This document shows, piece after piece, positions 2,429 through 29,541 of a stretch of 32,000 nt of DNA. Source of the stretch: Idiomarina loihiensis L2TR (lineage in GTDB: Bacteria; Pseudomonadota; Gammaproteobacteria; Enterobacterales; Alteromonadaceae); contig NC_006512.1 of the NCBI RefSeq assembly GCF_000008465.1, forward strand, positions 90,001 through 122,000, read 5' to 3'. Within the stretch, counting starts at the first letter, position 1, and each line of letters opens with the position of its first letter. The translations under genes were made by a program, and so were the position numbers. The notes beneath the pieces were generated by a model. That model was not told the origin of the DNA, made no database searches, and was given only the letters and a program-made list of their open reading frames with translations.

Positions 2429-4399
2429 CTAATCTTTAGGAACATAATATTCTCGCGATTGATACAAAATAGACGGCAACATAGCGAATGCTCTTATTTT
2501 TTTTAACTGCTCGGGGCTTAGCGGATCCTCTATCGGCTCTTGCTTATCGACTTCCGGGATATAGCGATAATGCTCAGTTGGCTTATTTACCCTAAGAACG
2601 GTTAAAGTCTCACCTTCCAACCATCCGTAGTTGTCGCCAAACTGCATCATTGCCCGGTTTCCGGGAGCTTTATCTGTGCGGCTTAAATCCTGCCCTACTG
2701 TTGGCAAATAGGCGGAAACACCTGCTAAAGAGAGTAATGTGGGAGCTAAATCAATTTGGCTTGCTGTCGACTTAATGGTTCGGGGTTCAAGATCTGCACC
2801 TAAAATCAGTCCTGGTATGTGGAATTTATTGACAGGGATTAAGTCGTCACCGTAAACCCGGGTATCATGATCGGCCACGACCAAAAATAAGGTGTTATCC
2901 CAGTAGTTACTTTGTCTGGCTTTTCTAAAGAACTCTCCGAGTGCGTAATCCGCATATTTAACCGCATTATTCACGGTATTTTTAGGCTCCTCATGAAGCT
3001 TTATAGTGTTATCGGGGAACTTAAACGGTTCGTGATTAGAGGAGCTAAAAGCCAGGGTGAAGGTGGGGTGTTTAGCTGTGTTGACTACTAATCGCTGATG
3101 TAGTTTATTAAATAAATCTTCATCGCTAACACCCCAGCTCCCAGTAAAATTCGGTGTTTTGTAATCATCTTGATCGATAATCGATTGAAAGCCATTACCG
3201 ACAAAAAAGTTGGCCATATTGTCAAAGTGAGCCTGGCCGCCGTAGATAAACTCGGTGAAATAACCCTGCCGGGATAAAACATCGGCAAGTGTAAAAAACT
3301 GACGCTGTGAGTTTGAAAGTTTCACGGTGCTTCGTGCTCTAGTCGGTAAAAAACCTGAAACAACAGCCTCTATACCGCGTACTGAACGGGTTCCTGTTGC
3401 GTAAAGCCGCTCAAACCACCAGCCATCTGATTTCAGTCGCTCCAGATTAGGTGTTACCGGTACGCCACCAAGTGATTCGACAAATGTCGCACCCAGGCTT
3501 TCTTCTAAAATAATGACAATATTAAGAGGTTTTTCTCTTTTCCGTGTCGCAGGCTGAAAGTGTACTGTGGGGTAATCTTTGTAAGGAAACTCATATTCTT
3601 TAAGGTGAGTGTTCTGCTTAACTGTTGTTAAAACTTCATCGGTTTTCATATCACCGTATATAAGATTTGCTTTTGATTCGTGTTTTAAATTGTAAAGTGC
3701 ATACTCTAAGGTATAAGTGGAATTCAGAATCAATGAATTGACCATGGCATCAGAGGTAACCGCGAAAAATGCTGGGTTAGCCGGGCGATGCGCTAGTGTT
3801 GAACGGATGCCGAGTACTACCATCACTAGAAGAAGAGGGTAAACACCCAACAAATACCGACGGCGCATTGGTTCTGGTTGAAATCGTTGAGCAATAATAC
3901 GGGCTATGCGCTTTAAAATGTATATGGTTAGTAAAGTAGAAGCCGCACCTATCATTAACCAAGTTTTGAATCCGTTCCATAGTGTGGAAAATACTTCGGC
4001 GGGATACTCTAGGTATTCAAAGAATAAGCGGTTGGGTCTAGTGTCGTACTGAGCCAAAAAAGCCGGTGTTGAAATCTCCATGAACCATAAAATGATGAAG
4101 CATAATGTAAACCACAGTAAAGCAGCACGATACCAGAGACTCTGGACTCGATATCGGTTCATAAAAGGAATAAAAAGTGGGAACGCAAGAAATGGGATGA
4201 TAATAAAATAGCTTACTTGCATAAGATCGGCTCGTAAGCCCAGAATGAAAAACTCTCCTAACCCTATAGCTTCGCTGACACGGTTGCTGTACAGAGAGAA
4301 GTGAAGAAAGCGGAATCCACTAAGCAGAGCGAGCGCAGAAACAAAGAAAAGAAATATTGGCCGCAATAATTCTGCAATTGGTAAAATTGGTTTGATCAT
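2429..4399 (-). CDS. LTA-synthase / phosphoglycerol-transferase family membrane enzyme (alkaline-phosphatase superfamily, MdoB/OpgB/LtaS-like)
   Basis: The N-terminal ~220 aa are multi-TM. A sulfatase-type domain follows (NIVIILEESLGATF, YATGTRSVRG, SSSNHEPF, LVVADHD). The ORF track starts at a TTG (4441). I prefer ATG 4399 because the regulatory boxes and a possible -10 lie at 4440-4483. Confidence 0.85.
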   Translation of the reverse strand: MIKPILPIAELLRPIFLFFVSALALLSGFRFLHFSLYSNRVSEAIGLGEFFILGLRADLMQVSYFIIIPFLAFPLFIPFMNRYRVQSLWYRAALLWFTLCFIILWFMEISTPAFLAQYDTRPNRLFFEYLEYPAEVFSTLWNGFKTWLMIGAASTLLTIYILKRIARIIAQRFQPEPMRRRYLLGVYPLLLVMVVLGIRSTLAHRPANPAFFAVTSDAMVNSLILNSTYTLEYALYNLKHESKANLIYGDMKTDEVLTTVKQNTHLKEYEFPYKDYPTVHFQPATRKREKPLNIVIILEESLGATFVESLGGVPVTPNLERLKSDGWWFERLYATGTRSVRGIEAVVSGFLPTRARSTVKLSNSQRQFFTLADVLSRQGYFTEFIYGGQAHFDNMANFFVGNGFQSIIDQDDYKTPNFTGSWGVSDEDLFNKLHQRLVVNTAKHPTFTLAFSSSNHEPFKFPDNTIKLHEEPKNTVNNAVKYADYALGEFFRKARQSNYWDNTLFLVVADHDTRVYGDDLIPVNKFHIPGLILGADLEPRTIKSTASQIDLAPTLLSLAGVSAYLPTVGQDLSRTDKAPGNRAMMQFGDNYGWLEGETLTVLRVNKPTEHYRYIPEVDKQEPIEDPLSPEQLKKIRAFAMLPSILYQSREYYVPKD

Positions 4400-4455
4400 A
4401 AATATTGTACTAGTTCTTTGTTGCTGCTTAATAAAAGGCAAACTAGCAGCGCATT

Positions 4456-4483
4456 CTTAAGTAAGCCTTAAGAAACATTTAAT
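4456..4483. promoter_or_regulatory. PmrA/BasR-box-like site 1: CTTAAG-taagc-CTTAAG-aaaca-TTTAAT (three YTTAAK hexamers at 11-bp phase)
   Basis: Read directly in the divergent intergenic region between the LTA-synthase-like gene and dgkA. CTTAAG is self-complementary, so the orientation is ambiguous. Confidence 0.6.
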
Positions 4484-4522
4484 AAGTTATTTAAAGATGT
4501 TGATGGCTAAGAGGGCGATAGA

Positions 4523-4882
4523 ATGAAACCGGGAAAGAAAGGCTTAGAACGAATTTGGTACGCAACTTTCAATTCGCTGCGAGGCCTGAAAAGTGCGTGG
4601 CAGTACGAGGCGGCCTTTCGACAGGAAGCACTAATGTGTTTGATTTTGGTACCTGTCGCTTTTTACGTTGAAGCATCGTTGGCTGAGCGGCTGCTATTGC
4701 TTGCAAGTCTTTTTATTCTGCTCATTACTGAGCTTCTTAATTCGGCGGTAGAAGCCGTTGTTGACCGTGTTGGGGCAGAGTTCCACGAGCTTAGTGGAAG
4801 GTCGAAAGACTTAGCCTCTGCAGCGGTATTTTTTGCCCTACTGTTTATGCTCGTGGTCTGGGTTAGCATTCTGTTTTTTTGA
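4523..4882 (+). CDS. dgkA: Diacylglycerol kinase
   Basis: 119 aa, colinear with E. coli DgkA (AAFRQE ... ELLNSAVEAVVDRVG.E.HELSGR.KD..SAAV). SD AGAGGG upstream. Confidence 0.9.
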   Translation: MKPGKKGLERIWYATFNSLRGLKSAWQYEAAFRQEALMCLILVPVAFYVEASLAERLLLLASLFILLITELLNSAVEAVVDRVGAEFHELSGRSKDLASAAVFFALLFMLVVWVSILFF

Positions 4883-4931
4883 TTTATTGGGTATGTTCAG
4901 GAACTTTCTACAAACTAACGCTCCACTATTC

Positions 4932-4974
4932 CTTAATAGCCCTTAAGGTTCTCTTAAGTAAACGCTCATACAGT
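4932..4974 (+). promoter_or_regulatory. PmrA/BasR-box-like site 2 plus -10: CTTAAT-agcc-CTTAAG-gttct-CTTAAG, then 10 nt, then TACAGT (4969-4974)
   Basis: Read directly. It lies 53 nt upstream of ATG 5027. The box-to-(-10) spacing is the same as at site 3. Confidence 0.6.
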
Positions 4975-5026
4975 AGCAGCATGAATGATTCTGTCAGCGA
5001 TGTCCGCTGGAAAAGGAGTAATCGTC

Positions 5027-5629
5027 ATGCGCTACCAATGGGTTACAACAACACAGGCTAACCGGTCGTCGGTTGAGGCTTTTATCTGTGAACGCTACTG
5101 GCTCAATTTTAATGCCTGCCTTAGTCAACTGCCCGAGGTGCTGCTAGCCCTGTACGAAAACGACACTCTGGTTGCGGCATGTGGTATTCAGTTTGCCGAA
5201 CAAAAGCCGTTGTTTTCAGAGTTCTATCTCGATAAGCCATTGCAACAATACTCTGTTGGCAACAAGCCGATGCCAGCGCTTGAAAATATAGCTGAAGTCG
5301 GTTCAATGGCCGCTCTGGCACCGCCTTATTTACCTTTGCTGTTTCAGGCGGTTATCGATTCTCTCTTGTCGAGAGGAATAACCGCTGTTGTCTTCACTGC
5401 AACCCGGGCTCTGCAAAAGTATTTCGCGAGACAAGGCATAGAATTAACCCTTCTAGCCGAAGCTAAGAAAAACGCTTTGCCCGAGTCTGTCCGCGATATA
5501 TGGGGCAATTACTATGAGCACACACCGCTTGTGCTGGGTGGTTGGCTGAGCCAGGGGCATGCGTTATTCACTAAGCAACGCCCTGCGTCTGTTTTCAGGT
5601 CGACAGTAGGGGCTGCGTCATGCCTGTAA
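5027..5629 (+). CDS. Thermostable-hemolysin family protein (delta-VPH-like; predicted GNAT-fold acyltransferase-like)
   Basis: About 200 aa. Resembles the Vibrio delta-VPH / Pfam T_hemolysin family from memory (VEAFI.ERY...F.A.L....P.LLAL ... IAEVGSMAA). SD AAGGAG at 5013-5018 favours ATG 5027 over the ORF-track start at 4985. The stop overlaps the next gene by 10 nt. Confidence 0.65.
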   Translation: MRYQWVTTTQANRSSVEAFICERYWLNFNACLSQLPEVLLALYENDTLVAACGIQFAEQKPLFSEFYLDKPLQQYSVGNKPMPALENIAEVGSMAALAPPYLPLLFQAVIDSLLSRGITAVVFTATRALQKYFARQGIELTLLAEAKKNALPESVRDIWGNYYEHTPLVLGGWLSQGHALFTKQRPASVFRSTVGAASCL

Positions 5630-6969
5630 CTGAGTTTTTTGACCAACTGCAAGCGCACGCAAAAAGTAATCCAAATCAGCTCTCTGTAAGTGACGAGCAA
5701 ACGGCTATTACTTACCACACGTTACTTAGTCGGGTGGCCGCCCGACGCGACTATTACCTGCAACAGCCAGACCCTGTTGTTCTTATCGACAAACCCAACT
5801 CCATTGATTGGGTTATAGATGACCTGGCGCTGCTGTGGGCGGGCAAAGTCAGTGTCCCGGTACCACCATTTTTTACTGAACAGCAGAAGCAGCATTTGGT
5901 TCAGCAAACCTTGTCGTCGCCGCAATTGCCGTCGATGACAGCTAAAATCACCTATACTTCAGGAACAACCGGTGAACCTAAAGGAGTTTGTCTTGCTGCC
6001 GCGTCTCAGATGGAAACAGTGAAAGCACTGGCGGAGCGTCTGGGAGCGGTGAAGGTTAAGCGGCATATGGTACTGATGCCGCTTGCTGTATTGCTGGAAA
6101 ATATTGCCGGGGTGTATCTATCGCTTTGGCTAGGTAATGAAGTGGTTCTGGTTGGTTCAGAAACTCTGGGGCTGAAAGGATCATCATCACTCTGTGCAGA
6201 GTCTTTTTTTGCTGCGCTACGGCTCTACCAACCGGATAGCCTAATTCTAACGCCTGCACTGTTGGCGGCTATTGTATCGGGTGTTGAGCAAGGTTTGTTA
6301 GATAGTCAGCAGTTCAAGTTGTTAGCGATAGGAGGCGCAAAATTACCCCTGCCGTTGGAGTCAAAAGCATTGGCATTAGGCCTGCCGCTGGTTCACGGCT
6401 ATGGATTGTCAGAGTTTTGTTCTGTTGTCGCATTGAACTCACCCGACCGTCCGGTTGTCGCTTCGGTTGGCAAACCGCTACCTCATGCACAGGTGACTAT
6501 TGATGAGGGCGAAGTTGTGGTCTCCGGCAACTGCATGCTGGGTTACCTGGGTGAGCCAGACTCCTGGTATCCGAAAAGGATAAGAACTGGCGACCTTGGC
6601 TCATGGGATGCTGAGGGCAACCTGCGCATTGGCGGGCGTATTAAGAATATTATTATTACGGCGTTTGGGCGCAATGTTGACCCTGAGTGGCCAGAAGCCC
6701 TGTTGAGCCTGCAGCCCAACATCCGACAAGCGGCCATTTGGGGCTCGGAAGAGTTACCCATTACCGCGCTGCTATATTCTCCTGAAAACATCGACTCTGT
6801 TGCCGCTCGTGTTAAAGCGGTTAATCAGCAGCTTCCTGACTACGCGCAAATCGAGCGGTATTTTCTTATCACTGAACCTTTTTCTCAGGCCAACCAACAG
6901 TTGACCGGAACCGGACGTCTTCGTCGTCAGCAAATTGCTAACGACTATTCCGAGCTATTAACGCTATAG
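5620..6969 (+). CDS. AMP-dependent synthetase/ligase (ANL adenylating enzyme), short form (449 aa)
   Basis: Core motifs TYTSGTTGEPKGV, HGYGLSEF and RTGDLGSWDAEGNLRIGGRIKN are present. Its start overlaps the upstream stop. Confidence 0.85.
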   Translation: MPVTEFFDQLQAHAKSNPNQLSVSDEQTAITYHTLLSRVAARRDYYLQQPDPVVLIDKPNSIDWVIDDLALLWAGKVSVPVPPFFTEQQKQHLVQQTLSSPQLPSMTAKITYTSGTTGEPKGVCLAAASQMETVKALAERLGAVKVKRHMVLMPLAVLLENIAGVYLSLWLGNEVVLVGSETLGLKGSSSLCAESFFAALRLYQPDSLILTPALLAAIVSGVEQGLLDSQQFKLLAIGGAKLPLPLESKALALGLPLVHGYGLSEFCSVVALNSPDRPVVASVGKPLPHAQVTIDEGEVVVSGNCMLGYLGEPDSWYPKRIRTGDLGSWDAEGNLRIGGRIKNIIITAFGRNVDPEWPEALLSLQPNIRQAAIWGSEELPITALLYSPENIDSVAARVKAVNQQLPDYAQIERYFLITEPFSQANQQLTGTGRLRRQQIANDYSELLTL

Positions 6970-6978
6970 AGGTATTTT

Positions 6979-7656
6979 ATGTCCTTTTTTAACACTTTAT
7001 GTGAGCAGACCCAGACAGAACAGCAGTATTTGCTGAGCGCAAGACCTATTCAACAGGCATTGCAGGGCGATATTTCATTGCCTCGTTATCAGGCTTTTTT
7101 AAGTCAGGCTTACCATCATGTAAAGCATACGGTTCCATTGCTGATGCGCTGTGGCAGCCGCCTGTCGCTAAACGATGAGTGGTTACGCAAAGCGGTTATT
7201 GAATACATTGGCGAAGAATATGGTCATGAGCGCTGGATACTCAACGACCTCGATGCCGCTGGCGGCGATGTGGATATGGTGCAGAACTCAGAGCCACATA
7301 CACCGACACAGGCCATGGTGTCTTTGGTTTATAACGCGATAGACAATGTGCATCCTACGGCGTTCTTTGGCATGGCACACGTACTGGAAGGAACCAGCGT
7401 GAAGCTGGCAACGGCCGCCGCACATAAAATCCAGAGCACACTTGGCTTGCCGGAGTCAGCTTTTAGTTATTTGCTGTCCCACGGAGACCTGGATCAGGAT
7501 CACGTTCAGTTTTTTGAGCAACTGATGAACCGAGTTGAAGACGCCGACGCGCAGCGCGCCATTATTCAAACCGCTAAACACGTTTATCGCTTGTATGGTG
7601 ATATGTTCAGAGCTTTGCCGGAGCTTGCGGGTGAACAACCGGAAGCGAGTGTATGA
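6979..7656 (+). CDS. Heme-oxygenase-like di-iron oxidase/oxygenase (HDO; iron-containing redox enzyme / TenA-PqqC-CADD-like fold)
   Basis: 225 aa, all-helical. Candidate ligand set: E80-x2-H83 (EEYGHE), E137 (AHVLEGTS), H168-x3-D172-x2-H175 (HGDLDQDH). SD AGAGG upstream. Confidence 0.65.
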   Translation: MSFFNTLCEQTQTEQQYLLSARPIQQALQGDISLPRYQAFLSQAYHHVKHTVPLLMRCGSRLSLNDEWLRKAVIEYIGEEYGHERWILNDLDAAGGDVDMVQNSEPHTPTQAMVSLVYNAIDNVHPTAFFGMAHVLEGTSVKLATAAAHKIQSTLGLPESAFSYLLSHGDLDQDHVQFFEQLMNRVEDADAQRAIIQTAKHVYRLYGDMFRALPELAGEQPEASV

Positions 7657-8450
7657 GCAAAATAAACTGGAAATCACAAAGCATAGTACTGACGGGCGCA
7701 TGCGGAGGGCTAGGTATTCAACTTGCCGAGCTGCTTAGTGCTAAAGGAGCAAAACTTTTATTATTAGGACGCTCAGAGCCCGAGCTAACTGCACTTGCCG
7801 CGCATTTGCAGCAGGACTGTTTTGTGTTGGATCTCTGTGCGTCCGATGCAATAAGCCATTTGCACCAGTTTATTGAGCAGAAAAACCTGCGCATTACCGG
7901 TCTTATCAATAATGCAGCAACCACACATGAAGGACTGCTTGAAGACGCAACCTCTGAGGACATTCAGCGTGTTATCGACACCAACCTAACCGTGCCCGTG
8001 GCTCTTATTCATAGGCTACTGCCTCGACTAAGAGCAAATCATGGCTGGGTCATGAATATTGGCTCTGTATTTGGCGCCATTGGTTTTCCGGGGCAGGCAC
8101 TTTATTGCGCCAGCAAGTTTGGCCTACGAGGGTTTAGTGAGGCGCTGCAGCGAGAGTTGCAACCAGAGGACGTACGAGTGCTTTACTGCGCCCCCAGAGC
8201 AATACAGACGCAACTCAATAACGGCGTTATCAGTCGTTTAAACCAGCAGTTGAAAACCTCGGCTGATGCGCCGGAATGGGTTGCGCAACAAATCGTTCAT
8301 CAAATTGAGCAACAACAACCACTGAAAACCCTGGGCTGGCCGGAAAAGTTATTTGCCCGGCTTAACGGGCTGTTACCGGAACTGGTTAACCGCAGTATGA
8401 AAAAGCCACGAATTTTATTACACCAATTGATCAAGGAAAAATCGCTATGA
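7653..8450 (+). CDS. SDR-family oxidoreductase
   Basis: TGACGGLG Rossmann motif, NNAA, and catalytic YCASK. ATGA overlap with the upstream gene. Confidence 0.85.
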   Translation: MSKINWKSQSIVLTGACGGLGIQLAELLSAKGAKLLLLGRSEPELTALAAHLQQDCFVLDLCASDAISHLHQFIEQKNLRITGLINNAATTHEGLLEDATSEDIQRVIDTNLTVPVALIHRLLPRLRANHGWVMNIGSVFGAIGFPGQALYCASKFGLRGFSEALQRELQPEDVRVLYCAPRAIQTQLNNGVISRLNQQLKTSADAPEWVAQQIVHQIEQQQPLKTLGWPEKLFARLNGLLPELVNRSMKKPRILLHQLIKEKSL

Positions 8451-9100
8451 AACCAATAACTGTATTAGTTACCTCAATGGCGTTAGCTGTAACGCTTTAC
8501 CTGTCGCCGGTTGCTGCAGAAGAAGTCAGCCAGTTGCTGAGCGTTCAGCAACGCTGGGCTGAAGTGAATTATAAGATCGAGGGCGACGAGCAGCTAAAAG
8601 CGTTTGAAGAACTGTCGGCGCAAGCTGAAAAATGGGTTGAGCAAGAGCCCGATAACGCCGAAGCGCATATTTGGCTGGGTATTATTAAAAGTACTCAGGC
8701 AGGTGCTGAAGGTGGATTGAGTGCGCTGGGTTTGGCAAAAGACGCGAGAAAATCTCTGCAAAGAGCATTGCAGCTTGACCCTCAAGCTTTGCAGGGTTCT
8801 GCTTATGCAAGTCTCGGTACGCTATATTACAAAGTTCCCGGCTGGCCGTTTGGTTTTGGTGACGACGACAAAGCCAGTGAATTATTGCAACGCGCATTGG
8901 AAATAAACCCCAACGGTATTGACCCTAACTACTTTTACGCCGACTATCTGTATGAACAGGGCAAGTACTCAGATGCAAGAAAATACGCAGAGCACGCGCT
9001 GAGCGCTGAAGTGCGGGAACAAAGACCATTAGCTGATGCGGAGCGACGCAAAGAGGTTCAGGCGTTACTGAAAAAGATTCATCACGAGCTGAAGAGGTAA
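8447..9100 (+). CDS. Secreted TPR-repeat protein
   Basis: Signal peptide (MKPITVLVTSMALAVTLYLSPVAA/EE). TPR-like helices (AEAHIWLGII..., ALQLDP, ALEINPN, YADYLYEQGKYSDARKYAEHAL). ATGA overlap with the SDR gene. Confidence 0.75.
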   Translation: MKPITVLVTSMALAVTLYLSPVAAEEVSQLLSVQQRWAEVNYKIEGDEQLKAFEELSAQAEKWVEQEPDNAEAHIWLGIIKSTQAGAEGGLSALGLAKDARKSLQRALQLDPQALQGSAYASLGTLYYKVPGWPFGFGDDDKASELLQRALEINPNGIDPNYFYADYLYEQGKYSDARKYAEHALSAEVREQRPLADAERRKEVQALLKKIHHELKR

Positions 9101-9108
9101 TTGGCCGC

Positions 9109-9771
9109 ATGGAGTTGTTACTGGTTGAAGATGATGCGATGTTAGGACAGGCTGTGGAACTCGGCTTGTCCGAGCGTCAGTTCCTGGTTCAGCGGGTACG
9201 CACGGGAGCGGCGGCTATTAGCGAGTTAAACCGAACTCACTACGATGCTGTTGTTCTGGATTTGGGGTTGCCGGATTTAGACGGAACCCGCGTTTTGGCC
9301 AGCCTCAGAAAAAAGGGTATGACGTTGCCTGTATTGGTTCTGACAGCGCGAGATCAATCCAGTGAAATTGTAAAGCAGCTGGATAACGGCGCTGACGACT
9401 ATATGATCAAACCGTTCGATATGAACGAACTGGCTGCCCGTCTGCGCGCGCTGGTTCGTCGCCAGCGCGGCTATGCTTCCCCGGAGTTAAAAGTGGGTGA
9501 TATTGTTTTGGACGACGCTAACCATAGCGTTGTTGTTGAAGGGCTGGCTGTTAACCTCTCCCGACGCGAATTTGAGCTACTGAAAGCATTAATGTCCGCA
9601 CCGGAACGTGTGCACAGCCGTGACAAGCTCGAGCAGGTTGTGTTTCAGAATGAAGCTCAGGTAGAGAGTAACGCGCTGGAGGTTCATGTGCATAATTTAC
9701 GTAAAAAGCTGGGCCATAAAGAGTGGATTCAGACTATTCGCGGTATTGGTTACCGACTGCAATGCAATTAG
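9109..9771 (+). CDS. OmpR-family response regulator, PmrA/BasR/QseB-like
   Basis: Receiver motifs EDD, VVLDLGLPDLDG, LVLTARD and YMIKPF. Winged-helix C-terminus (LEVHVHNLRKKLG ... IRGIGYRL). Colinear with Salmonella PmrA as I remember it. Confidence 0.9.
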   Translation: MELLLVEDDAMLGQAVELGLSERQFLVQRVRTGAAAISELNRTHYDAVVLDLGLPDLDGTRVLASLRKKGMTLPVLVLTARDQSSEIVKQLDNGADDYMIKPFDMNELAARLRALVRRQRGYASPELKVGDIVLDDANHSVVVEGLAVNLSRREFELLKALMSAPERVHSRDKLEQVVFQNEAQVESNALEVHVHNLRKKLGHKEWIQTIRGIGYRLQCN

Positions 9772-11105
9772 TTAAGCGTGTAAGGCACAAGCTAAACTCT
9801 ATTCGTAGGCGTATTCTTGTCGCTGTATCTCTTTTGTACCTTGTCAGTTCAACCTTGTCAGCAGTATGGATTTACTTTGAAGTGAGCCATGAGGTTGATG
9901 AACTCTTTGATGCGGAAATGCTGCAGCAGGCAAAAACCTTATCTGCATTTATGTCCGTGAATTCCGAGCGCTTGCCTGAAGCCGGGGTGATCATTGAATC
10001 AATCGGTGCGCACAACTATGAAGATAAGCTGTCTTATAGGATAGAAAACACTGAAGAGCTGCTTCTTATGCAAACTGAAGGCGCCCCGGATGCCAGTGCT
10101 TTTGAGTTTATCCCGGGTTTTTCAGTTAAGAGAGTGAAAGACGAACTTTGGCATGCATTTGGCTTAGAGAACGCAACTGGACAGCGAATACTAATGTTGC
10201 AGGAAGACGGCTTTCGTTCTGAACTTAGAATGGATTTAACCGTCGATACAGTTATTCCGATATTACTGATTTTACCTTTTATGCTTTGGTTGGGATGGTG
10301 GACCATCAACCGGAACTTCTCCAGCTTTAATCGCTTGGCTGGTGAGTTAAGGCGTAAACGTGCTGACGACTACACCAACTTTGTTGAAGATAACGACAGA
10401 GAGGAAGTTGCATTAGTAAAACGTTCTTTAAATCACTACATAAATCGTATAGAGCAAACGTTTTTACGTGAGAAGCGTTTTTCCGCAGATGCAGCTCATG
10501 AGCTTAGAACTCCTTTGGCCAGTTTGAAGGCTCAGATTCAGAGTCGACTTGGGAGCGCTACCTCAGAGCAGCAGAATGAGCTTCAGCCTCTGCTAGACAG
10601 TACCGAACGGTTGGTTAAATTGGTTGAAAGCTTATTGCAGTTGTCTAAAGCTGAGCTGCCACCTGAACAGCTAAAGCAAGTGAATGTTGCCAGTGTTCTC
10701 AGGCAGGTACTTGCCGACCAGTACGTCGCTGCGGAATCGAAGGGGCTGAGCTACCATGCACAACTTCCTACTGTGTTTCAGCAAACAAGTGATGAAAGTT
10801 ACCTCTATCTTTTGTTTGCTAACGCACTGGATAACGCAATTAAGTATGCGGTTCCGGGCTCTCATATCGGAATCGAAGTCACCGAAAACCAGATATTTGT
10901 TTGTAACCGCGTCGCTGCAGACCATGTTATTGATATTGACCGAATTACCGAGCGGTTTTATCGCGGAAAACAGCTAGATGTTGAGGGCTCCGGACTGGGT
11001 CTGAGTATTGTGAGGAATTTGGCCGAGCAACTCGGCGTTCAGATTAACTTTCGACATATCGATGATGAGTTCTGTTTTATTGTAACTTTTGATACGGATC
11101 AATAA
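9762..11105 (+). CDS. Sensor histidine kinase (PmrB/QseC-like architecture), G1 box degenerate
   Basis: ATG 9762 overlaps the RR stop by 10 nt. Two TM segments flank a ~150-aa periplasmic region. H-box FSADAAHELRTPL, N-box LDNAIKYA, G2 GSGLGLSIV. The DxGxG position reads NRVAA. Confidence 0.85.
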   Translation: MQLVKRVRHKLNSIRRRILVAVSLLYLVSSTLSAVWIYFEVSHEVDELFDAEMLQQAKTLSAFMSVNSERLPEAGVIIESIGAHNYEDKLSYRIENTEELLLMQTEGAPDASAFEFIPGFSVKRVKDELWHAFGLENATGQRILMLQEDGFRSELRMDLTVDTVIPILLILPFMLWLGWWTINRNFSSFNRLAGELRRKRADDYTNFVEDNDREEVALVKRSLNHYINRIEQTFLREKRFSADAAHELRTPLASLKAQIQSRLGSATSEQQNELQPLLDSTERLVKLVESLLQLSKAELPPEQLKQVNVASVLRQVLADQYVAAESKGLSYHAQLPTVFQQTSDESYLYLLFANALDNAIKYAVPGSHIGIEVTENQIFVCNRVAADHVIDIDRITERFYRGKQLDVEGSGLGLSIVRNLAEQLGVQINFRHIDDEFCFIVTFDTDQ

Positions 11106-11136
11106 GCGGCTGTATTCCCGGCGTTGAGCGCATAAG

Positions 11137-11169
11137 CTTAATATTTCCTTAAGGTAGTGTGCCTATACT
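11137..11169 (+). promoter_or_regulatory. PmrA/BasR-box-like site 3 plus -10: CTTAAT-atttc-CTTAAG, then 10 nt, then TATACT (11164-11169)
   Basis: Read directly. It lies 30 nt upstream of the cytochrome b561 ATG (SD GGAG at about 11190). Confidence 0.65.
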
Positions 11170-11198: not shown

Positions 11199-11708
11199 AT
11201 GGATATTCGATATTCGGGTTTGTCGCGAATAAACCACTGGTTCAGCGTGATCTTTGTGGTTGTCATGCTGACTCTGGGTTATATGATGTTTTTTGCAAAT
11301 GACAGAGCCTCTGGCTCATACGCCGAAGCCGCCCATATTGGCGTTGGATTTTTTGCCTTCTGGTTTTTGCTCTGGCGCACAATCTACCGTTTAAAAATGG
11401 GTTTCCCTGCGCACAAAAAACAAGATAGGCGCCACGAATTTGCCCGAGTTGTTCACTATTTGATTCTACTCGGGCTGACACTATTGATTATTACCGGTCC
11501 CTTGTATTTGTTTACCGAAAATGAAGGACTGGCGGTGTTTGACTGGTTTACCGTTAATCTTGATCTCACTGCTCTCAGTATTGTTCACGAACCGGCGGAA
11601 GAAGTGCATAAAATTACCGGCCTTTACGTACTGCCGGTTTTGCTTGTTGTGCATATTGCGGGTGCTGTTGTTACCTACTTGTCAGATGAGGGAGCAGCCC
11701 GATCATAA
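11199..11708 (+). CDS. Cytochrome b561 family protein (CybB-like, 4 TM, di-heme)
   Basis: 169 aa. N-terminal RINHW motif. Conserved His residues in TM helices (AAHIGVG, VHY, VVHIAG). Confidence 0.7.
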   Translation: MDIRYSGLSRINHWFSVIFVVVMLTLGYMMFFANDRASGSYAEAAHIGVGFFAFWFLLWRTIYRLKMGFPAHKKQDRRHEFARVVHYLILLGLTLLIITGPLYLFTENEGLAVFDWFTVNLDLTALSIVHEPAEEVHKITGLYVLPVLLVVHIAGAVVTYLSDEGAARS

Positions 11709-12750
11709 AGCTGAATTGGAAATAAATAGCGCAGATTGCTGCTGGCGCAGCTCTTCCGGGACAATACCCAGCCAGCGTTTGCAGGCGCGTCGAAAGTTGT
11801 TGGGGTTACTGTACCCCAGCTTCTGCGCAAGCTCGACATTGCTGTAGGGGTGTTTTTGCAGCAGGTTCAGCAGTTTGTGTAGACGCACCAGGTCATATAT
11901 TTGCTGAAAGCTGTAGCCATGACTGGCCAGCAGACGTTTGCACGAGGAAAGGCTAATGCCAATTTCAGCCGCCAACTCGGTTAGCGAGGCGTCATGGCCC
12001 GTTTCGAGCTGATAATCCAGCCACTTAAAAACGCTTAGCATGACAGAAGCTCGCGCCTGTGTCTGATGCTGCATCTGACAAAAGCTAAGTGCCTGATGAT
12101 ATTGGGCTAAGTTGCGCTCAGGCGAATGTTCCTGAAGCTGTTCCGCCGGAATAGAGAGTCCACAAATAGGGCGTGAACTCACCTTTTTTACCCATTTTTT
12201 CCAGGTGGGTAAGGGCGAAATATCATCAGGCAGAGCAACATGCCACTGGTTAATAGCTAAGCCTCGAGCTCTGCCCAGCATTAAAAGTATTGCTACACCA
12301 ATTTTGCAATTGGCAGAATAGCAGAGTTGATTCATTTTCCCTGACAGCCCCTCAACCGGAATAAAGTCCAGTTGTAAGTCGTTGGGTAGGGGTAAATAAA
12401 AAGGGCTGTAGCAGGCTTTGAAAGCGCGACAAATGAATAAGCGCCTGCTTTAGTGTTTTTGCGTGAACGGTCAGGTCAATCAGTGGGTTAAGTCTGTCAC
12501 TGAACAGTGTTTCTACAACCAATTGCCATAAGTGCGGGTCGTTAATTTTTTCTTCAGCAGACGCCAGTAACAACAGCATTTCATGATCGGTGAGCCGAAA
12601 GTTGTTTATCTGCAGTTTTTGTTCAGATAATGAGGTGCCCCTGAAAAGCTCCGAAGAGGAAATGCCGCGCCTCTCGGCAAGCGGCAGCAGCGCTCGTATA
12701 AAGGGTTTACCAAGCAAACGGCGTTGGTCGTTAGTTGGCCAGAGGCGCAT
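11703..12750 (-). pseudogene. AraC-family transcriptional regulator split by a frameshift (N-terminal ligand-binding-type part 12352-12750; C-terminal HTH part 11703-12335)
   Basis: The two adjacent ORFs are in different frames. The upstream one is an AraC N-terminal-type domain. The downstream one carries the AraC HTH (LAAEIGISLSSCKRLLASHGYSFQQI ... LGYSNPNNFRRACKRWLGIVPEELR). Both frames are open across 12355-12449. SD GAGGAG lies before ATG 12750. Confidence 0.6.
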
Positions 12751-27639: not shown

Positions 27640-29541
27640 GTGTTTTCCCGATTCTTTTTCCCTATTGCCTTAATAGGCACATTACTTTTCTCCGGTCAGG
27701 CTTTGGCCAGTTCTTCAGCGGATACTCAAAGTTCTGACATGCGTCAGTTATTGCAGCTGGCGGAATACGTTGGCGTAGATTATTCCGAAGCGGTAGCCAA
27801 TGGTGAAGTCATTAATCCCGATGAATACAGCGAAATGACTGAGTTCGCCGGCCTTATTGGTGAAAAAACTGAACAGGCGCCGCAGGCGGTGCAAGCCGAA
27901 ATGCGTCAGTTGGTGAACAAGCTCAAGCAGCTGATTCATGATAAAGCTGACCCGGAAGCGGTGGTTACGCTAACCAGTGAGCTAAGAAACACTCTGCTGT
28001 CGGCTTTGCCAAAGCTAAGCCTCCCGTCAAAGCTGGCAAGTGAAAAGCACGTTGAGCAGTTATTTCAACAAAACTGCTCCGCCTGTCATGGTGCTGCCGG
28101 TCAGGGTGATGGCCCTGGTGCTACCGGGCTGGAGCCTGCCCCCACTAACTTTACCGACCGTGAACGCGCCAATAACCGCTCATTACTTGGGTTGTTTGAC
28201 GCTGTTTCCGATGGCATCGACGGCACGGCAATGGCGTCTTTTAGCCATTTAAGTGAAGAAGAGCGGTGGGCGTTAACTTTCTACGTGGGCAGTCTGGCGT
28301 TTAATGACAGTGCTGACTCTGAGCAAAAGGTGGCGCTGAGCGAGTTGATTAATTACAGCCCGAATACCTTACTGCAGCGCGGCATTTCGTCTAACGCTAT
28401 TGATTACTCGCGCACTCACGCTCGTGATTACTTTTCTGAAAGCTCAGTAAACAGTCCTATTGCAATTGCCCGCACAACCCTTGGCCAAGCTTTAAAGGCG
28501 TACCAACAAGACAATTATAGCGAAGCTAAGCGGTTGGCTATTTCGGCGTATCTCGATGGTTTCGAGTTAGCTGAAAACTCCCTTAATGCCAAAGCTCCGG
28601 AGCTAATGCGAACCATAGAACGTGACATGATGGCGTTGCGTGGAGTTATCAGTAAACCCGGCAAGCTGCAGCAGGTCGAACAAATGACTGCGAAGTTGCA
28701 ACAGGAACTGGATGTCGCGGCGAATACGTTGTCGGAAGATAAGCTGTCAGAATCCGCATTGTTTGCGGCAAGTGCCGTTATTCTGTTACGCGAAGGGCTT
28801 GAAGCCTTACTCATTGTTCTGGCAATTGGCACAGTACTGGCGCGCTCCGGACGCAAAGACGGACTGCGCTATGTGCACGCGGGATGGATCACGGCGCTGA
28901 TTGCGGGTGTCGGCACTTGGCTGGTGGCGGAATACTTCATCAGCATTAGTGGTGCCAGCCGCGAGATTATTGAAGGTGGAGCCGCGCTGCTGGCCGCCGT
29001 CATACTGTTCTATGTGGGTTACTGGATGCACAGCAAAACCCAGTCGCAGCAGTGGCAACGCTTTATTCAGGAAAAAGTGCAGACTCAGCTAAAGCAGGGC
29101 GCTTTATGGGGTCTTGCCGGCCTTGCCTTTTTAGCTGTGTATCGAGAAGTGTTTGAAACCGTATTGTTCTATCAGTCTTTATTGTTGCAGGCGCAGGACA
29201 ATGGCAGCAGTGTCGCCTACGGTTTTGTCTTTGGCCTGGTGGTTCTGGCGGTAGTGGCCTGGGCTGTCATTAAATACTCAGTCAAACTGCCAATGAATAC
29301 GTTTTTCAAGTTCACAACGTACATTATTCTGGCTCTGGTCTTTGTTTTGCTGGGCAAAGGCGTTAGCGCCCTGCAGGAAGCTGCCTGGTTTAGTCATACG
29401 GCGTTTCCAGTGGATGTAACCTTCGACTGGCTGGGTATTTACGCCAGCTGGGAGACCTTAGGTGCGCAATTGGTGTATTTGATTCTTGTGATGGCTTTAT
29501 TTAAACGGCAGGTTTCATCAAAATTGAATAAAGTCGTCTAA
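27640..29541 (+). CDS. Cytochrome c-FTR1 fusion: periplasmic mono-heme c domain fused to a high-affinity iron permease (EfeU/Ftr1 family)
   Basis: GTG start with SD GAGGAG 5 nt upstream. Signal peptide. CSACH heme motif (28075-28089). Two REXXE permease motifs (REGLE from 28789; REVFE). About 7 TM helices in the C-terminal half. Confidence 0.85.
   Translation: MFSRFFFPIALIGTLLFSGQALASSSADTQSSDMRQLLQLAEYVGVDYSEAVANGEVINPDEYSEMTEFAGLIGEKTEQAPQAVQAEMRQLVNKLKQLIHDKADPEAVVTLTSELRNTLLSALPKLSLPSKLASEKHVEQLFQQNCSACHGAAGQGDGPGATGLEPAPTNFTDRERANNRSLLGLFDAVSDGIDGTAMASFSHLSEEERWALTFYVGSLAFNDSADSEQKVALSELINYSPNTLLQRGISSNAIDYSRTHARDYFSESSVNSPIAIARTTLGQALKAYQQDNYSEAKRLAISAYLDGFELAENSLNAKAPELMRTIERDMMALRGVISKPGKLQQVEQMTAKLQQELDVAANTLSEDKLSESALFAASAVILLREGLEALLIVLAIGTVLARSGRKDGLRYVHAGWITALIAGVGTWLVAEYFISISGASREIIEGGAALLAAVILFYVGYWMHSKTQSQQWQRFIQEKVQTQLKQGALWGLAGLAFLAVYREVFETVLFYQSLLLQAQDNGSSVAYGFVFGLVVLAVVAWAVIKYSVKLPMNTFFKFTTYIILALVFVLLGKGVSALQEAAWFSHTAFPVDVTFDWLGIYASWETLGAQLVYLILVMALFKRQVSSKLNKVV

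Follow-up and report, generated by a model that had tools for sequence, protein, structure and literature searches.

The pmra-box, the binding site of the response regulator PmrA, consists of two hexamers (XTTAAY/YTTAAK) in direct repeat, 5 nt apart (PMC10570014, PMC3973317). It replaces the -35 element of PmrA-activated promoters, where PmrA touches sigma region 4, beta and beta' (PMC10570014). Similar sites have been described for two further regulators: QseB, at its own promoter, binds a CTTAA-N6-CTTAA located around the -35 (PMC5053249), and the BqsR box is TTAAG-N6-TTAAG (PMC13522522). The E. coli promoter sequences that we inspected read CTTAAG-gttgg-CTTAAT (eptA) and CTTAAC-aactt-CTTAAG (qseB). 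Here, we analyse three sites of the same kind in a stretch of 32,000 nt from Idiomarina loihiensis L2TR (contig NC_006512.1, positions 90,001 to 122,000), which is called the window throughout and whose own numbering we use. The sites lie around a seven-gene operon encoding a T_hemolysin family protein, a ligase, a heme-oxygenase-like enzyme, an SDR, a TPR protein, a response regulator and a histidine kinase. Judging from the sequence and its conservation among relatives, we consider it very probable that they are operator boxes for the operon-encoded regulator, which would use them to activate four promoters.

Paired hexamers in the window and in related genomes

Box A lies between dgkA and a divergent gene for an LtaS/OpgB-like enzyme of the sulfatase family, box B upstream of the operon and box C upstream of a cytochrome b561 gene. 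The boxes and the -10-like hexamers associated with them are as follows.

4456..4472, both strands: box A, CTTAAG-taagc-CTTAAG, with hexamers at 4456 and 4467; found in 13/13 loci holding the sulfatase/dgkA pair
4440..4445, minus strand: -10-like TAGTTT, 10 nt from box A; predicted promoter of the LtaS/OpgB-like gene
4483..4488, plus strand: -10-like TAAGTT, 10 nt from box A; predicted dgkA promoter
4932..4937, plus strand: distal CTTAAT, separated from box B by the 4-nt spacer agcc and outside the conserved box
4942..4958, plus strand: box B, CTTAAG-gttct-CTTAAG, 5' of the seven-gene operon; found in 33/33 operon promoters examined
4969..4974, plus strand: -10-like TACAGT, 10 nt past box B
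11137..11153, plus strand: box C, CTTAAT-atttc-CTTAAG, with hexamers at 11137 and 11148, 5' of the cytochrome b561 gene
11164..11169, plus strand: -10-like TATACT, 10 nt past box C

The sites had been noticed in a sequence-only reading of the window, and re-reading the DNA placed every hexamer, spacer and -10-like hexamer of the three where that reading had put them. By the gene calls of the window all three places are intergenic, as had been claimed; two gene starts in the region needed correction. The third hexamers proposed as additional half-sites at boxes A and B did not hold up: each site consists of two hexamers, and neither the hexamer at 4932 nor the one at 4478 is conserved. We rejected a three-hexamer site at box B because CTTAAT 4932 is lineage-specific, being conserved in no other locus, L001 (the closest relative) and L002 included. 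At box A, TTTAAT (4478-4483, following the box after the spacer aaaca) shares bases with the -10-like hexamer of dgkA, TAAGTT, and is better read as tttaa plus the first T of that hexamer; Pseudidiomarina has no equivalent of TTTAAT 4478, yet a -10-like hexamer stands at N10 there as well.

The hexamer CTTAAG equals its reverse complement, and box A is therefore identical on either strand and able to serve divergent promoters. It reads CTTAAG-taagc-CTTAAG-aaacatttaa-TAAGTT on the plus strand and CTTAAG-gctta-CTTAAG-aatgcgctgc-TAGTTT on the minus strand.

A search of both strands of the window for YTTAAK-N5-YTTAAK gave 6 strand hits, corresponding to 4 pairs at 3 places, in agreement with the earlier statement that no hexamers paired at N5 occur elsewhere in the window. 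Dinucleotide shuffles led us to expect 0.11 +/- 0.35 hits, matching the previous estimate of about 0.1 chance pairs per 32 kb, and 0/100 shuffles reached 6. Single CTTAAK hexamers were not enriched in the window (45 against 39.6 expected), and 5/9 of its CTTAAG hexamers fall inside boxes. When spacers of 0-15 were scanned, the window contained 4 pairs at N5 and 0-2 at each other spacing; the related loci, 633 kb altogether, contained 55 pairs at N5 versus 0-8 at other spacings.

For the comparison, 30 genome loci with 10-kb flanks were retrieved by means of the first operon protein (Idiomarina, Pseudidiomarina, Zobellella, Oceanisphaera and Oceanimonas), and the set was extended by two Zhongshania contigs (L031, L032) and one Chromatiales metagenome-assembled genome (MAG; L033). 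The closest genome locus is that of I. rhizosphaerae (L001), with 94% identity in the first operon protein. The order of the first five genes, hereafter the cassette, is the same in all loci, and the seven-gene order is kept too, with the two-component system placed upstream in L023. Directly upstream of the operon, TTAAK-N6-TTAAK-N10-TANNNT occurs in 30/30 genome loci from five genera, and Zhongshania has CTTAAG-ttttc-CTTAAA-N10-TACGCT in this position; the genera with conserved box positions share only 34-60% protein identity. This conservation of the box, with fixed geometry, 5' of the regulator's own operon supports the proposal that the regulator at 9109-9771 autoregulates its operon.

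In an information profile of 29 unique operon promoters TTAAG is invariant, CTTAAG near-invariant and the flanks carry about 0 bits; in the -10-like hexamer the T, the A and the final T are invariant. With one mismatch allowed, about 630 kb yielded a sole extra match, a homologous one that overlaps the ribosome-binding site in the sister genomes L017 and L019. The spacing between box and hexamer is 10 nt without exception across more than 60 promoter instances.

The two other boxes are conserved together with their genes. On the minus-strand side of box A, TAnnnT stands at N10 in 13/13 loci that hold the sulfatase/dgkA pair; on the plus-strand side it does so in 10/13, and the other three, from Pseudidiomarina, have TACAAA. 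The pair changes its place in Pseudidiomarina, from the upstream side of the operon to a position downstream of the kinase, and takes the box along. Thus, where co-regulation of ‘dgkA and/or the phosphotransferase’ had been suggested, the either/or can be dropped: both genes would be controlled, through one bidirectional box. Two Idiomarina loci (L001 and L003) have no sulfatase gene and a dgkA without a box. In I. rhizosphaerae, alignment of L001 9419-9496 with 2429-4522 of the window shows the whole LtaS/OpgB-like gene and box A to be missing; as judged from these sequences, the gene and its box are a presence/absence polymorphism of a regulon member among close relatives. Box C with its N10 hexamer is found in 10/10 Idiomarina loci having the cytochrome b561 gene, the hexamer being TACATT, TAGATT or TACTCT in the orthologues, which speaks for the suggested co-regulation of this gene.

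Two loci depart from the common arrangement. The Idiomarina MAG L023 carries a diverged two-component system of the same type upstream of the cassette (14-2040; regulator 38% and kinase 27% identical); the box and its N10 -10 still directly precede the cassette, and the regulator retains the ESNSLEVHIHHLRKK helix. This suggests that the sensor module was replaced or shuffled around a fixed promoter. The Chromatiales MAG L033 has the five-gene cassette, no two-component genes on the contig and no TTAAG box. Ahead of its cassette, at about 490-525, stands CTTAAC-gaaat-TTTAAC-gttgg-TTTAAC, with three TTAAC at an 11-bp phase, which may be a variant operator for another regulator.

Regulator, kinase and predicted mechanism

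By its sequence the regulator falls into the PmrA/BasR-QseB-BqsR clade of the OmpR/PhoB family. In NCBIfam it scores best with PmrA (NF007928, 219.4 bits; cut-off 330) and QseB (195.8 bits; cut-off 345), its best solved relative in the PDB is Klebsiella PmrA/BasR (E 1.5e-47), and its identity is 44% with E. coli BasR and 46% with QseB. Strict orthology to PmrAB or QseBC was rejected, as both regulator and kinase miss the NCBIfam cut-offs. BqsR/CarR was rejected as the closest relative: the receiver domain scores 107 bits with Klebsiella PmrA (3w9s), 95 with Acinetobacter PmrA and 78 with CarR (8gc6). In Klebsiella PmrA, N188, N196 and R210 contact bases, and T187, V192 and H195 make hydrophobic contacts (PMC4660055). 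The regulator of the window has N188, V192, H195, N196 and R210 unchanged and Ser for T187. Among 29 aligned orthologues N188, V192 and R210 are invariant and N196 is kept in all save six, which have His; T187 is replaced by Ser or Gly, and H195 by Ser in the Pseudidiomarina type. The residues with which PmrA reads the TTAA bases are kept in our regulator. The label ‘PmrA-box-like’ given to the sites is apt, while the identity of the regulator as PmrA itself is not established.

The kinase, with two transmembrane (TM) helices and about 120 aa in its periplasmic domain, scores 202.7 bits for QseC (cut-off 475) and 124 for PmrB (cut-off 314). Its whole length can be aligned with E. coli QseC (29% identity, VDELFD following TM1); with E. 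coli BasS only the cytoplasmic part aligns, at 26%. A PmrB/BasS-type sensor was rejected on the lack of any alignment of the sensor region to BasS and on the PmrB score under the cut-off.

Two motifs flank the periplasmic domain, at 9795-9900 (residues ~55-65) and 10220-10250 (residues ~160-170) of the window. In the Idiomarinaceae kinases SHEVDELFDAE after TM1 and QEDxFRxE before TM2 are strictly conserved, and the Oceanimonas group carries the variants SHELEELFDAR and ERDDVRGE. The HE[VL][DE]E (HExxE) motif adjoining TM1, kept in all kinase orthologues, resembles the iron-binding HExxE motif of PmrB. QEDGFRSE of our kinase aligns opposite QEWEYRED of QseC, with the aromatic-Arg-x-acidic core kept in all orthologues and the first Glu not; in QseC the acidic EYRDD/EYRED is a signal motif (PMC5053249). 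The two motifs are similar to the acidic motifs with which PmrB/BqsS and QseC/FirS sense metals. The signal may reasonably be guessed to be a metal, for instance iron. In both Zhongshania contigs the kinase is directly followed by genes for a cupredoxin, an FTR1-type iron permease and a 239-aa protein (L031 15129-17042, L032 15647-17489), and the cupredoxin-FTR1 genes are a hint of an iron-related signal.

In the mechanism that we propose, the QseC-like kinase would phosphorylate the regulator, and a dimer of the phosphorylated regulator would sit head to tail on the direct repeat nTTAAG-N5-CTTAAK. If TAnnnT is the -10, the box would occupy the place of the -35, at about -39 to -23, and the bound dimer would recruit or position sigma-70 RNA polymerase. 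Four promoters would be switched on in this way, those of the LtaS/OpgB-like phosphotransferase gene, of dgkA, of the regulator's own seven-gene operon (positive autoregulation) and of the cytochrome b561 gene, whose predicted starts are near 4433 (minus strand), 4495, 4981 and 11176, respectively. No canonical -35/-10 promoter was found in 4300-5100, a stretch that includes the intergenic DNA on either side of boxes A and B; from this and the fixed 10-nt distance we infer activation of the class-II type. The head-to-tail dimer could load on box A in either orientation, which would be the simplest way for this box to serve two promoters.

Several points weigh against such a mechanism. Binding, activation and transcription starts are predictions made from DNA sequence, the starts from -10-like hexamers only. 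The regulator scores too low for the curated PmrA and QseB models alike, and another part of the genome could encode a paralogue that uses this box too, in the way in which E. coli PmrA and QseB have one in common. With 10 nt between box and -10, the box would lie about 2 bp upstream of the position deduced for the Klebsiella pbgP scaffold (-37 to -21), and BqsR-type boxes can repress as well (PMC13522522). Finally, the invariance of columns in the 29-promoter profile is partly built in, since the pattern itself served to anchor the sequences; what counts independently is that every orthologous promoter has the pattern and almost no other place does.

The alternative that best survives accepts the boxes as real and has them bound mainly by another regulator of the PmrA/QseB/BqsR family, encoded elsewhere, with cross-regulation of the operon. 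Members of the clade do share a near-identical box, E. coli PmrA binds the qseBC promoter (PMC5053249), and our search for paralogues was confined to the window. We nevertheless hold this to be unlikely, given that every locus, over several families and with the rearranged L023 among them, has inherited box and two-component system together, that the sole cassette without a two-component system on its contig is also without a TTAAG box, and that the operon-encoded regulator has an appropriate recognition helix.

Repression through the same boxes, by occlusion of the -35 region, strikes us as very unlikely. The box overlaps the binding position of sigma-70 region 4, and P. aeruginosa BqsR boxes over promoter elements have been tied to negative or mixed regulation (PMC13522522). 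However, there is no recognisable -35 hexamer to occlude, and the 10-nt distance, invariant in all those instances, fits a fixed contact between activator and polymerase, which occlusion does not need; moreover, PmrA promoters of the same design are activated (PMC10570014).

An origin of the pairs by chance, from composition or as part of a repeated or mobile element, to which a short AT-rich palindrome such as CTTAAG without enrichment of single hexamers might point, has next to no probability left and is refuted by the shuffles, by the enrichment at one spacer length only and by position-specific conservation across the divergent genera, and spacers and flanks differ among the three sites, with no larger repeat found to cover them and no Rfam family found in the window.

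Genes of the region and the acyltransferase cassette

The genes next to the boxes are the following.

2429..4399, minus strand: sulfatase-fold membrane-anchored enzyme, LtaS/OpgB-related, 656 aa (Pfam Sulfatase)
4523..4882, plus strand: dgkA, diacylglycerol kinase (Pfam DAGK_prokar, 1.7e-32)
5027-5629, plus strand: GNAT-fold acyltransferase of the T_hemolysin (‘thermostable hemolysin’) family (Pfam, fold match)
5620-6969, plus strand: acyl-AMP/CoA ligase, AMP-binding (Pfam)
6979-7656, plus strand: heme-oxygenase-like iron enzyme (Pfam)
7653-8450, plus strand: SDR (Pfam)
8447-9100, plus strand: TPR protein (Pfam)
9109..9771, plus strand: response regulator, OmpR/PhoB type, PmrA/QseB clade (NCBIfam, PDB, identity)
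9723..11105, plus strand: sensor histidine kinase, QseC-like (NCBIfam, full-length QseC alignment)
11199..11708, plus strand: cytochrome b561 family membrane protein (Pfam Ni_hydr_CYTB, 1.7e-18)

The start of the sulfatase-family gene is ATG 4399, as placed by alignment of orthologues, which are 56-82% identical. In the PDB the enzyme best matches Vibrio VP1736 (3lxq, solved and uncharacterised; E 1e-135), and it also matches LtaS/LtaP and, weakly, phosphoglycerol transferase I; its relationship to LtaS/LtaP and OpgB is more distant than that to VP1736. Going by the chemistry known for these families, a head-group transferase of the LtaS/OpgB type would release diacylglycerol, DgkA would recycle it, and the pair probably forms a coherent envelope-remodelling module. 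PmrA-controlled envelope remodelling offers a parallel to this predicted module, and in E. coli dgkA is controlled by BasRS (PMC8138132).

For the first gene of the operon the longest open reading frame (ORF) opens at ATG 4985. The real start is ATG 5027, in keeping with homologues of 200 aa and an AAGGAG ribosome-binding site; ATG 4985 sits within the predicted 5' untranslated region and is kept in the closest relatives only. The operon leader contains a hairpin (CAGCG-atgtc-CGCTG, 4995-5009) just 5' of the Shine-Dalgarno sequence (~5012-5018). Other Idiomarina have a hairpin in the same place, with CAGCA/TGCTG, TAGCGG/CCGCTA, CAGCC/GGCTG or CAGTCG/CGACTG arms, and these sequence differences suggest compensatory change. 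RNAalifold gave no consensus structure for the leader, with MAFFT misaligning the hairpin arms, and single-sequence folds give a small hairpin.

The AlphaFold model of the ‘thermostable hemolysin’ protein (pLDDT 90) has a GNAT fold. Its best matches among solved folds are the N-acyl-homoserine lactone synthases TofI, MesI, LasI, BjaI, RpaI and EsaI and the N-acyl amino acid synthase FeeM, with TM scores of about 0.55-0.6. From this model and the gene content, the acyltransferase, its dedicated acyl-AMP/CoA ligase, the iron enzyme and the SDR probably make a modified N-acyl compound. PDB sequence searches for the heme-oxygenase-like enzyme and the ligase added little, and our literature search returned no paper describing the T_hemolysin cassette and none of relevance on PmrA/QseB of Idiomarina. 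The tight linkage between cassette and sensor system over several families suggests that the product of the cassette is functionally tied to the signal.

One rather doubtful, if attractive, possibility is that the seven-gene operon is a self-contained autoinduction circuit, in which a diffusible N-acyl compound is sensed by the QseC-like kinase. The LuxI/FeeM-fold N-acyltransferase would then, just as tentatively, be fed by its own ligase, with the iron enzyme and the SDR tailoring the compound. With the same reservation, the regulator would close a positive loop via box B, and the outputs would be the envelope-lipid pair and cytochrome b561. The logic would be analogous to that of PhcBSR and CqsA/CqsS, in which a signal synthase is joined to a two-component system, and, if true, this would be a new quorum-sensing module conserved across the Idiomarinaceae, the Oceanimonas group and Zhongshania. 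In a less exotic version, the cassette may serve envelope remodelling by making an aminolipid or an N-acyl amino acid.

Two observations concern other parts of the window. Beyond the cytochrome b561 gene, an AraC-family regulator is represented by two ORFs on the minus strand (11703-12750), one for the ligand-binding part (12352-12750) and one for the helix-turn-helix part (11703-12335). The two-part pattern is repeated in L001 and L024 (tblastn), and the split may be a frameshift or an artefact of the mechanical ORF listing and of tblastn. The window also encodes a fusion of FTR1 with cytochrome c (27640-29541), a catalase-peroxidase and three receptors of the TonB-dependent kind, with no boxes near them.

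Comparison with known systems

We believe that the value of these observations is that an uncharacterised two-component system of marine gammaproteobacteria gains a concrete regulon, predicted to comprise four promoters with their starts, which extends the logic of the PmrA/QseB/BqsR box to lineages and targets without earlier description. Newly added as targets would be the LtaS/OpgB-like phosphotransferase and dgkA, the cytochrome b561 and the cassette, so far unstudied, that centres on a GNAT ‘thermostable hemolysin’. Furthermore, box A, with its palindromic hexamers and mirror-image -10s, could show how a head-to-tail dimer serves divergent promoters. Overall, this is a well-conserved and fairly ordinary case of a known regulatory design, and current understanding is not overturned. 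Its interest is moderate and comes chiefly from the bidirectional box and from the conserved way in which the uncharacterised acyltransferase cassette is coupled to the sensor system, the co-inherited cassette built on a LuxI/FeeM-fold acyltransferase being the most intriguing part.

Compared with the pmra-box of Salmonella, E. coli and Klebsiella (pbgP/arn, ugd, pmrCAB/eptA-basRS), the boxes described here have the same repeat, the same spacer and the same predicted replacement of the -35. As predicted for our regulator, PmrA targets its own operon and envelope-lipid enzymes of the sulfatase/alkaline-phosphatase fold. The DNA-reading residues are shared, whereas the target here is LtaS/OpgB-like, not EptA or Arn. 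The box-to-(-10) distance deduced for Klebsiella pbgP is about 8 nt, against 10 nt here. The sensors differ as well: our kinase has a large periplasmic domain and aligns with BasS in the cytoplasmic part only. To our knowledge, the five-gene acyltransferase cassette belongs to no known PmrA operon.

The likeness to QseBC (E. coli, Aggregatibacter) and FirRS (Haemophilus) lies in the CTTAA-N6-CTTAA that QseB binds at the promoter of its own operon and that the sequence of box B matches, and in the full-length alignment of our kinase with QseC, the juxtamembrane VDELFD included. The EYRDD/EYRED signal motif of QseC, on the other hand, is only partly kept, the co-operonic genes differ, and the E. 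coli qseB promoter region is shared with the divergent ygiW, which has no counterpart as a neighbour here.

As to BqsRS/CarRS of P. aeruginosa, the BqsR box is matched exactly by boxes A and B, while the first half-site of box C is TTAAT. The essential Arg in the C-terminal hairpin of BqsR is conserved in our regulator, and the acidic xExxE beside TM1, through which BqsS senses metal, has its counterpart in the conserved HExxE. BqsR boxes, however, stand at variable positions and act both positively and negatively, whereas the geometry is fixed here, and the content of the BqsRS operon differs from that of our seven-gene operon. Thus, the system works like PmrA, QseB and BqsR and is a strict orthologue of none of them, being as QseBC-like as it is PmrAB-like.

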